From NCBI RefSeq assembly GCF_003334335.1, contig NZ_QOWQ01000061.1: a DNA stretch of 13,768 nucleotides. The stretch is one strand, 5' to 3'. Positions 10,498-13,749 of the stretch are shown here, in pieces (the first letter of the stretch is position 1; every line of letters starts with the position of its first letter). A program made the position numbers and the translations under genes. The notes under the pieces were generated by a model. That model did not search any database. It was not told where the DNA came from and worked only from the letters and a program-made list of their open reading frames with translations. Source of the DNA: Escherichia coli. GTDB taxonomy: Bacteria; Pseudomonadota; Gammaproteobacteria; Enterobacterales; Enterobacteriaceae.

Positions 10498-13400
10498 TTG
10501 GAAGTAGAAATGTGGGATGGTGGCTTACAAGAACAGGAAGTATTGGCTATTGAGAAAATAAAAGCTGCTTTTTCAGTCAACGTATCTAAGCCTGACAAGC
10601 CTTTCCGTAGCGGTTCAATTAGTGAGCAGCTAAAAAGCTATGGTTTTATCGGCAATGAAATGTTCCCTTGGAAAGGTTATGCAGGTTTTCGATTTGTTGA
10701 GGCAAAAAAAGAGGGGGAATTCGATTTAGTTATTGTAACACACTGCAACGTGATCATTGTTGAACTGAAAGACTGGAACCATCAGCCTGTAACCGCACGC
10801 GGAGATACTTGGTTTAAAGGTGATAAGAACATGGGGCGCTCGCCAGTAAGCGTGACTCGTAGCAAAAAATTCATGCTGGACAAAAAACTCAAGCGTCTGG
10901 TAGACCGTTTTACGAACAAAGGCTATATCCCGATTGTTCATTTTTTTGTTGTGATGACCGGCAATGCAGATTTCAGCGCGCTGCCGGAGGAACAACGGCG
11001 CCATACGATCTCGTTAAAAGATTTCCTGAAGTTTGCCGATCGCGGGAGCTTCAATAACTATTTCAAACCGCACCCAGCTACCAAGGTTCTTAACAAGGAT
11101 TTCCATCTTTTCGATGATTTGTTCCTAGGGCCTCAGACGGCACCAAAAGCCTTGAGAGTTAATGGCTATGAAGCTAATGATATGATTTTCGAACATCCTA
11201 AAAAGGTGTATCGAGAATATCTGGCAAAATCTGAGATATCAACGAACAGCGAAGCGCTACTCAGAGTATGGAATTTTAGAAATATAACGGGAACGAAAGC
11301 GAATACCCCGGAAGGACGAGCTCAGATTGTTTCACGTGAGCGCGAAGTGTTACAGCACATCAATCACCAGAATCGTGACCTGTATAACCACTGTCTCAGG
11401 TCTTTGACGAGTTTTCAGAAAGACGAGGTGACGGCCGAGTATAGCGAAGTCTACGAAGTTCCGCCGGGTCATGTCCGGTTTAATGAGTTTATCGGAAAAT
11501 ATGGTAAGAACTTTTCTGATATGGACCGCTTGAATGTGGTGAAACTGCTCATTGCAAAGTTTAGTGATCTCCATGAGATGAAAATTGCGCACAGGGATGT
11601 CGCCGATCACAGTCTGTGGATTTCACCTTCAAAAGAAGTTGCTCTTTCGAACTTTATTTCGGCTTACCACCAGCCAGCCGGAACGGTTGGCGATTACCGT
11701 AAGCTTTTATCCGTAGGTGCAGTCCACGTAAAAGACATGCTTGATAAGGGCGAGCTTACGCCTTTTCAGCAAGATGTTCATACTCTGGGCCTTGTCGCCT
11801 GGCACTTATTTAGCGGTATGCGCATGTCGCCAAAGAGTCTGGAGAAAGTACAGGACAACATGCTAAACAGCCAGCACTGGTATTCATCTGTATTACGGGA
11901 TGCCGTTGCCGCAAAATTCACTTCTGCAACAGAATTCTTTGATGCCCTGAAACAAGCCGAACCTGCTGGCAAGGATATTCCAACATTTGATGATACTGAG
12001 CTTGACCCTTACCGACATGCTATCAATCACGCTCGTCAATACCCGGAAGACGATGGCTTTCAGTTTCAGGTCGAAACAGTCGACAAAGAAGTCTATATCT
12101 CGAAAGGAAGGCTCGTGAAGGCTTGGCTGAATGTTGGGGGACAGGGATACGATCCGTCAATTAATTTCCAGGTTCTGAAGTTTTTAAAGCAGGTTGAGCG
12201 GCTTTCTTCAGTTAAAACAACGTATCTACCTCAAATTCGTGAATTCGGTATCGCATCAAAATCATCAAGCCTATATATGGTCACGGATCAGGTACAGGGA
12301 GAAACCTGGGATAAAATAGCGGTCCCCGATGATGAAAAAATCGACCTCATTGGTAAGTTTGTCGCCGCCGTTGAGCACTTACATGGTCTGGGTGTTTCTC
12401 ACGGGGACATCCACCCTGGCAATGTGATATTTGAGACACAGAGCCGTTTGCTTTTTCTCATCGATATCCCCGATTTTTCACCGTCCGGTGACGAACCTAA
12501 AAATCACAGTTACAGCCCTGAATACATTGATAATTGTACTTCTTTTGAACGTGACAACTATGCAGTGATGAAGATGTCCTGCGAGTTGCTAGGCATGTCA
12601 TGGGGGCTGGAATCAGACATTTATCCGACAATCGCGAATGCTATCCGAGCAGAGCTGGAAGATCCGGTTTTTGGGTTTAAGGATTTAGGCCGCTTTAAAA
12701 AAGCGATAGATAGTAATGACCTGGTGCCAGAACAAGACCTGATAGAGATTACTGCAGGAAATGCCGATGAAATAATCTCTATTCTGCCTGATAACGGGCA
12801 TCTGTATGTCAAAGTTAAGTCAAATCCTAAAGCGCCAGCTGAAGTAAATGTGACTTTCTCTGGGATTGGTGGCAGTTTTACTGCGGTGTTCAACAAAGAT
12901 CAGAAGACGCTGGTTCATGGCTTCAGGCCACGGGCTCGCGTCACAATTCGTAAGCAAGATATTGATGAAAGCCAGTTCGAAATTGATACTGGCATCAAGA
13001 TTATTCCCGGCAGTCCGCAGGATCTGTCGGCGTTGACAGTATTGCTTAATGAAGAAGAATCTTTTGCGCGGGCAATCGAGTTGATTGCCGCAACTGAAGA
13101 TGTTCAGGTACAAGAGCCACTTACGCTTCAGCTAAAAGATACCTTTGCAAGGCTTGATAAGCAGACGCTTGAACCTTCTTTAAGAGAAGTGCTGGAAATC
13201 CCAACAGTGAAACTGTGGCGCGCCATTCTGGATACTGAAACAGAATCTTATCCAAACATTGAAATCAGCGGTGAAGTGGTCCCGGTTGCAGATGCTCATG
13301 GAGAGCTTCTTCTCCCTTACTCTGCTGATGTTGATCCACTCGGTGCTTTCAGAAGTAGTGATGAAGTCGAAGCCTTACAGGTCGATCAGGAAGGTGTTGA

Positions 13401-13749
13401 GCGATTTATTGGTGAAGTGTCACTTAAGAAGTCAGAGCTCAAAGAGATTCGTCTTGTCAAAGTTAGTTCAGCAGCCTTCAAGCTGAAGGATTCTGATATT
13501 GTCTTCTTCCGTACAAGGCCGACTCGTGCATCTTATCAGAAACGTAAACGCGCACTGGAACGTCTCCTAGATCGAGAAAGTGTGCTGCCTGACTTAATTG
13601 ACTTGTTCGATCCATCCTGCAAACAGGCGGCTCAAAATTATGGTATCACTCTCAGCGATACCGATTTTGCCAGATACGACCGTGAAGATCAGTGTCAACG
13701 ACGGATGAAAAGTGATCCACTTATATCTCCACCAACGGCCCAATATTGA
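10498..13749 (+). CDS. Large multidomain protein: N-terminal NERD (PD-(D/E)xK-like) nuclease domain, two Hanks-type kinase-like domains (first degenerate, second apparently intact), unassigned C-terminal region; candidate anti-phage defence protein
   Basis: 1083-aa ORF. Strong SD AAGGAG (10485-10490) 7 nt before the TTG start at 10498; first ATG at 10510. NERD-like core GEFDLVIVTHCNVIIVELKDW (D76, E89, K91) followed by PIVHFFVVMTGNADF. Kinase-like 1: IAHRDVADHS (H365-R366-D367) and DVHTLGLVAWHLFSG (subdomain IX-like). Kinase-like 2: SHGDIHPGNVIF (D637, N642), LFLIDIPDF (DFG-like), YSPEYID (APE-like). Motif reading only. Confidence 0.9.
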   Translation: MEVEMWDGGLQEQEVLAIEKIKAAFSVNVSKPDKPFRSGSISEQLKSYGFIGNEMFPWKGYAGFRFVEAKKEGEFDLVIVTHCNVIIVELKDWNHQPVTARGDTWFKGDKNMGRSPVSVTRSKKFMLDKKLKRLVDRFTNKGYIPIVHFFVVMTGNADFSALPEEQRRHTISLKDFLKFADRGSFNNYFKPHPATKVLNKDFHLFDDLFLGPQTAPKALRVNGYEANDMIFEHPKKVYREYLAKSEISTNSEALLRVWNFRNITGTKANTPEGRAQIVSREREVLQHINHQNRDLYNHCLRSLTSFQKDEVTAEYSEVYEVPPGHVRFNEFIGKYGKNFSDMDRLNVVKLLIAKFSDLHEMKIAHRDVADHSLWISPSKEVALSNFISAYHQPAGTVGDYRKLLSVGAVHVKDMLDKGELTPFQQDVHTLGLVAWHLFSGMRMSPKSLEKVQDNMLNSQHWYSSVLRDAVAAKFTSATEFFDALKQAEPAGKDIPTFDDTELDPYRHAINHARQYPEDDGFQFQVETVDKEVYISKGRLVKAWLNVGGQGYDPSINFQVLKFLKQVERLSSVKTTYLPQIREFGIASKSSSLYMVTDQVQGETWDKIAVPDDEKIDLIGKFVAAVEHLHGLGVSHGDIHPGNVIFETQSRLLFLIDIPDFSPSGDEPKNHSYSPEYIDNCTSFERDNYAVMKMSCELLGMSWGLESDIYPTIANAIRAELEDPVFGFKDLGRFKKAIDSNDLVPEQDLIEITAGNADEIISILPDNGHLYVKVKSNPKAPAEVNVTFSGIGGSFTAVFNKDQKTLVHGFRPRARVTIRKQDIDESQFEIDTGIKIIPGSPQDLSALTVLLNEEESFARAIELIAATEDVQVQEPLTLQLKDTFARLDKQTLEPSLREVLEIPTVKLWRAILDTETESYPNIEISGEVVPVADAHGELLLPYSADVDPLGAFRSSDEVEALQVDQEGVERFIGEVSLKKSELKEIRLVKVSSAAFKLKDSDIVFFRTRPTRASYQKRKRALERLLDRESVLPDLIDLFDPSCKQAAQNYGITLSDTDFARYDREDQCQRRMKSDPLISPPTAQY

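Follow-up and report, generated by a model that had tools for sequence, protein, structure and literature searches.

The region between the kinase and helicase modules of MkoA in an IS100-interrupted Mokosh type I locus of Escherichia coli

A 13,768-nucleotide (nt) stretch of Escherichia coli DNA (NCBI RefSeq assembly GCF_003334335.1, contig NZ_QOWQ01000061.1; hereafter the window) contains an open reading frame (ORF) whose 3' part, at positions 12655-13749, was considered in a preliminary description to encode the C-terminal region of a NERD-kinase protein. Our analysis indicated that 12655-13749 is likely to represent the inter-module region of the kinase-helicase subunit (MkoA) of the Mokosh type I defence system, with an artificial C-terminus made by the insertion sequence (IS) IS100 at 13692/13693, and that this region would act as helicase 1B domain and adaptor. 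Both gene and system are already known, and the copy in the window is disrupted and closely allelic to a system verified by experiment. The region resolves into a pseudo-terminus made by the IS, a standard accessory module of the helicase and one small orphan domain.

Identity of the gene and its interruption by IS100

The single long ORF of the window (10498-13749, + strand) has 1083 codons when counted from a TTG. RefSeq and IMG both place the gene start at the ATG at 10510, and residue numbers in this reference frame are 4 below those of the preliminary description. Pfam detected NERD at residues 57-139, a weak kinase-like match at 274-450 and Pkinase at 581-661 (E 9.5e-6); the latter two matches represent the Ser/Thr kinase expected of a Mokosh type I MkoA. 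Beyond approximately residue 700 of the ORF, no Pfam domain was found, nor did Pfam place one in this region in any of the 38 family members scanned. NCBIfam gave no match in the 364-amino-acid (aa) tail. For these two databases, the earlier statement that 12655-13749 contains no recognisable motif was therefore confirmed. It failed for PADLOC, whose MkoA model PDLC03921 matched the complete window ORF (E = 0; profile positions 1-1025 of 1607) as well as the tail on its own (E 1.9e-86; profile positions 695-1025).

When window 12655-13768 was used as megablast query against 5,426 complete E. coli genomes, its first 1038 bases (12655-13692) were 100% identical to a gene annotated as "AAA domain-containing protein" in more than 300 of these genomes. 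The same bases match, again at 100% identity, codons 716-1061 of the gene for WP_001333439.1, an E. coli MkoA of 1652 aa. This protein is encoded by an intact mkoA in strain WCHEC020031, whose locus is collinear with window 693-13692 (99.1% identity, same upstream context) and in which a 478-aa MkoB (PDLC03923, E 1.9e-151) is encoded downstream of mkoA, with overlapping stop and start codons. Residues 1-1648 of the intact allele matched PDLC03921 end to end (positions 5-1603 of 1607, E = 0). The native order of MkoA is NERD, pseudokinase, kinase, domain A, acidic linker, stalk/1B barrel, RecA1 (with a 1C-like insertion) and RecA2, followed by the PLD protein MkoB. What had been described as a NERD-kinase protein is thus a 1652-aa NERD-kinase-kinase-helicase protein, in which the region under study forms an internal connector.

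A three-way alignment showed that the window departs from the intact gene directly after ...GAAGATCAG at 13692. In intact mkoA, the DNA 3' of this position continues as CACGGAAACAAGATC... and the protein as HGNKISLNEQQRKAF...GPPGTGKT, giving 591 further residues that hold the superfamily 1 (SF1) helicase. In the window, position 13693 instead begins the terminal repeat of IS100 (IS21 family), TGTCAACGACGGATG..., which is identical to the IS100 end in E. coli strain 300444; the last 76 bases of the window occur thousands of times in E. coli records, adjoining istB of IS100. Because the sequence diverges at 13693 into the IS100 repeat, the ORF takes its last 18 residues (CQRRMKSDPLISPPTAQY) and its stop codon from the IS, and the presumed C-terminus of the protein is a product of the insertion. 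The reading frame exits mkoA at codon 1061, 7 codons short of LNxxQ and 28 codons short of the Walker A motif GPPGTGKT, and a Upf1-like (COG1112) helicase with an intact Walker A motif was accordingly absent from the window copy and present in the intact allele. Since the truncated copy lacks every ATPase motif, and defence requires these, Mokosh is almost certainly inactive in the source strain. The features of the locus are as follows.

10510-13692 (+): 5' part of mkoA of Mokosh type I (codons 1-1061 of 1652), encoding NERD, pseudokinase-like domain, kinase, domain A, linker and helicase stalk/1B; assigned by PADLOC, Pfam and collinearity
12655-12738 (+): connector after the second kinase, aa 716-743, with a short helix at aa 727-735 (predicted helices at model positions 7-18 and 28-36, confidence score 76-88)
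12739-13107 (+): domain A, aa 744-866 (predicted, confidence score 90-98)
13108-13203 (+): flexible acidic linker, aa 867-898 (confidence score below 50 at model residues 169-189, aa 868-888)
13204-13569 (+): domain B, aa 899-1020, predicted stalk helix, six-stranded beta-barrel and stalk helix (confidence score 91-97)
13570-13692 (+): lead-in to RecA1, aa 1021-1061, with conserved L1029, F1033 and Y1056 (translation of the intact allele, conservation)
13693-13768 (no strand assigned): terminal inverted repeat of IS100 (IS21 family, IS100kyp) in mkoA, of which 13693-13749 is read as 18 foreign codons and a stop (matches beside istB; identity to the IS100 end of strain 300444)

An AAGGAG Shine-Dalgarno sequence is located 6 nt 5' of the TTG at 10498 and 18 nt 5' of the ATG at 10510 (window 10486-10512). 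Based on this spacing, MkoA may start 4 codons upstream of the database annotation. Two minus-strand ORFs, 12621-12896 and 12820-13113, were rejected as chance ORFs; they are located inside the conserved MkoA reading frame and had no support.

Conservation and predicted architecture of the region

A word-indexed search for homologues of the 364-aa tail yielded just 11 matches, all of them fragments of at most 531 aa. When aa 716-1061 were searched exhaustively with HMMER against 1.84 billion representatives, only 96 matches were obtained, the long ones being proteins of 1.4-1.8 kaa that matched at the same position (approximately 710-1090), while distant relatives matched the second half of the region only. 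In 37 full-length homologues the region was present at the same position, and all of these proteins continued into the helicase. In the full-length alignment, the region was less conserved than the catalytic cores and most gapped at aa 841-880 (37% gaps); over aa 700-1100 of the 38-sequence alignment, identity to the E. coli protein was 21-43%. An AlphaFold2 model of aa 700-1100, built on this alignment, had a mean predicted local distance difference test score (pLDDT; the confidence score in the list above) of 86.9, and of 90.6 for aa 716-871. Disorder of the region and its absence or variability among homologues, both raised in the preliminary description, were thus not observed: the stretch is folded according to the model and kept in position across the family. 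The fold search that had also been proposed gave a divided result, with Upf1-like helicases as top matches for domain B and no significant match for domain A.

In the model, domain A (aa 744-866) is a separate, confidently predicted and family-specific domain, composed of an antiparallel beta-sheet and two C-terminal helices. Its best-conserved residues were a PDNG turn (aa 760-763) and G785, and conservation was limited to Gly/Asn/Asp turn residues and hydrophobic core positions; no catalytic-type polar residue was conserved. That only turn and core residues are kept argues against an enzymatic effector. The linker that follows is rich in E, S, D and P, and measures 13-61 aa among homologues, with a median isoelectric point (pI) of 4.3.

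In all Upf1-like helicases, a helix-barrel-helix module is located just upstream of motif I, and aa 899-1020 of MkoA form this module. Modelling thereby identified domain B, which makes up about half of the region, as the predicted stalk and 1B barrel of a Upf1-like SF1 helicase. The model shows a helix at 899-912, six strands across 916-1002 and a helix at 1003-1020, after which LNxxQ follows at 1068 and Walker A at 1090. This layout and spacing agree with those of IGHMBP2, in which stalk (3-33), 1B (34-141) and stalk (142-158) precede RecA1 (from 159) and the LN-equivalent motif is found near residue 190. A Foldseek search of the model against the PDB showed structural similarity of domain B to solved 1B/stalk structures: Upf1 (9qdq; E 3.8e-4, probability 1.00, 211 columns), Nam7, IGHMBP2, UPF1 (6ej5), SETX and Dna2 were among the top matches, and the alignments far exceeded the approximately 35 RecA1 residues present in the model.

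Profile comparison pointed tentatively in the same direction. The N-terminal sequence of IGHMBP2 was confirmed against PDB 4b3f, homologues were gathered and the P-loop was excluded from the hhalign comparison. MkoA aa 944-1032 then aligned in the correct register with IGHMBP2 78-167, which comprises the second half of the barrel and the second stalk helix (P 0.0026; score 24.7, versus 11.8 ± 2.3 in 40 column shuffles, all of which scored lower). Controls with a reversed profile and with domain A were negative. The stalk helices hold strictly conserved residues (W903, E910, S1008 and A1015 invariant; R1012 in 97%), and the IGHMBP2 alignment includes an [ST]-aromatic-x5-A-L stalk motif. The profile of short-type MkoA (PDLC03920) aligned with the intact protein from aa 878 on, which indicated that domain B travels with the helicase module and that domain A does not. 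A reading of domain B as a flavin-binding FNR/siderophore-reductase domain was also considered; it was rejected on account of the flanking stalk helices, the site directly before SF1 motif I and the profile alignment with the 1B domain of IGHMBP2.

Proposed mechanism and alternative readings

In Upf1 and IGHMBP2, movement of the 1B barrel on its stalk opens, closes or clamps the RNA channel and controls RNA binding, and upstream accessory domains push on 1B. By analogy, the 1B barrel of MkoA probably caps the RNA channel of RecA1 and RecA2 and would tune the grip of the motor on nucleic acid. Domain A and the acidic linker probably form a non-catalytic adaptor that tethers the NERD/kinase half to 1B. 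Through this adaptor, the state of the NERD/kinase half would pass to the helicase, comparable to the pushing of the CH domain of Upf1 on 1B, and domain A may also dock MkoB.

Several observations weigh against this interpretation. The hhalign probability was just 11.5%, and the P value of 0.0026 refers to a single comparison. The Pfam family for the 1B domain of SMUBP-2/HCS1 (PF21138) matched none of the 38 MkoA members, and a hidden Markov model (HMM) search against the PDB gave matches from the LN motif onward and none over domain B; Pfam AAA_11 matches likewise began at the LN motif. Scores for domain B were moderate, and generic barrels (FNR, EF-Tu domain 2 and Gar1) were also found among the structural matches. 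The putative position of the barrel over the RecA1/RecA2 channel is drawn from related helicases. Finally, the window stops 76 nt inside the IS, so that any 3' part of mkoA and any mkoB would lie beyond its edge.

With respect to domain A, it is a tentative possibility that this domain is a sensing or partner-docking surface of long-type MkoA rather than a passive spacer, with a phage trigger, MkoB or oligomerisation as a p32/MAM33-like trimer as candidate functions. Structural scores for a p32/MAM33 fold did not reach the usual significance level, sequence similarity to p32/gC1qBP/Mam33/p22 was not seen and the acidic character of the E. coli domain (net charge -6, pI 4.8) is not conserved in the MkoA family (median -1, range -11 to +4). 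The likeness to p32/gC1qBP/Mam33/p22 is therefore a lead rather than a classification. A somewhat less probable reading takes domain A for a previously undescribed fold, exclusive to long-form MkoA, that either links the sensor half with NERD and kinase to the Upf1-like motor or brings in MkoB, the PLD nuclease. If this were true, domain A would act as the switch for the onset of Mokosh activity.

It is improbable that misassembly at the end of the contig produced the IS junction and that the source strain has an intact, active mkoA. The 76 nt of IS sequence in the window correspond to approximately one k-mer of an assembler, and IS100 is a highly repeated element, but a true insertion is expected to give, in a short-read assembly, a contig in which unique sequence is followed by the first k-1 bases of the repeat, and the break falls exactly at the terminal TGT of the IS. 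We infer that the contig, by stopping at this point, behaved as a short-read contig does at a true insertion of a repeated element. In addition, the closed chromosome of E. coli 300444 (positions 9971-11772 of the locus examined) carries an independent IS100 insertion in mkoA, at codon 1354, with the remainder of the helicase and mkoB downstream of the IS. IS100 has thus struck mkoA at least twice independently, at codon 1061 in the window and at codon 1354 in strain 300444.

Least credible by a wide margin is the suggestion of the preliminary description that a stand-alone NERD-kinase defence protein naturally ends here in a sensor or effector module: the region is indeed folded and conserved, domain A has no known relative and the ORF terminates at this point in the window, but that end was created by the IS100 insertion, all 37 full-length homologues run on into the helicase, this mkoA/IS100 junction was found in none of the 5,426 complete E. 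coli genomes, predicted stalk/1B accounts for about half of the region, catalytic-type polar residues are not conserved in domain A and the effector of Mokosh is a separate PLD protein, MkoB.

Under the preferred reading, as the inter-module region of an interrupted MkoA, the locus holds a characterised system in a copy inactivated by an IS, and what seemed a novel terminal module is an artefact of truncation. The expectation of novelty in the region was borne out for domain A, whose approximately 120 residues gave no significant match to known relatives and are the sole truly unexplained part, and not for the remainder, which includes the predicted helicase stalk/1B of a known protein. The domain map of long MkoA shows sites for truncations.

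Surrounding island and relation to known systems

At the left edge of the window, a 119-aa ORF (72-431, + strand) weakly resembled FabD/MdcH acyltransferases (E 1e-9, far under the cut-off) and probably represents a gene fragment located upstream of ycdU. A 605-aa ORF (3170-4987, - strand; RefSeq hypothetical protein WP_042002566.1) adjoins the tyrosine integrase of the island (1781-2983) and has a GC content of approximately 0.32, versus approximately 0.44 around it. This ORF had no Pfam, NCBIfam or PADLOC match and is possibly an orphan cargo gene of the island. A YfjI-family gene (7020-8463, + strand) is represented in the window by ORFs of 385 and 134 aa that overlap at 8059-8177. Its counterpart at the WCHEC020031 locus is a single 477-aa coding sequence (6364-7797), and the gene appears frameshifted in the window. 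Just upstream of mkoA, the RefSeq annotation shows a TOTE conflict-system primase-domain gene reduced to a degraded fragment (window approximately 9990-10325; WCHEC020031 locus 9336-9671). This remnant suggests an eroding defence island, inserted beside ycdU.

Mokosh is a common defence system that has been likened to the eukaryotic Upf1/MOV10L1-PLD6 (piRNA) machinery. In type I, a protein with kinase and Upf1-like helicase domains (MkoA) is paired with a PLD protein (MkoB), and mutations in the helicase ATP site or in the PLD active site abolish defence (Millman et al., 2022). Supplementary tables of that study list SG199 from E. coli SEC470 as a "verified" Mokosh type I system, with a MkoA of 1652 aa that begins MWDGGLQEQEV; comparison of the 399 residues printed with the allele in the window gave 92.5% identity. 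In the literature, no description of the region between kinase and helicase of MkoA was found, and no structural or mechanistic paper on MkoA besides Millman et al. (2022) and Cury et al.

The half of MkoA with NERD and the first kinase-like domain (aa 50-460, window 10510-11900) matched PglW of BREX type 2 (E approximately 1e-27) and MAD6 of MADS (E approximately 7e-32), both well below the NCBIfam family cut-offs. Judged by these sequence matches, BREX, MADS and Mokosh appear to share a NERD-kinase module. The matches to PglW and MAD6 end at approximately residue 460 and do not cover 12655-13749.

With MkoA of SEC470 and WP_001333439.1, both of the long form, the window copy shares gene, upstream context and the order NERD-kinase-kinase-A-B. 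It differs from the intact long form in ending at codon 1061, at IS100, before the helicase motifs, and in that no mkoB is seen in the window. With Upf1/Nam7, IGHMBP2, Sen1/SETX and Dna2, MkoA shares a predicted helix, six-stranded barrel and helix before RecA1 and motif I, at similar spacing. In contrast to the similarity in layout, sequence similarity to these helicases is too weak for Pfam or HMMER and, upstream of its barrel, MkoA has an acidic linker, domain A and the kinases rather than a CH or zinc domain.

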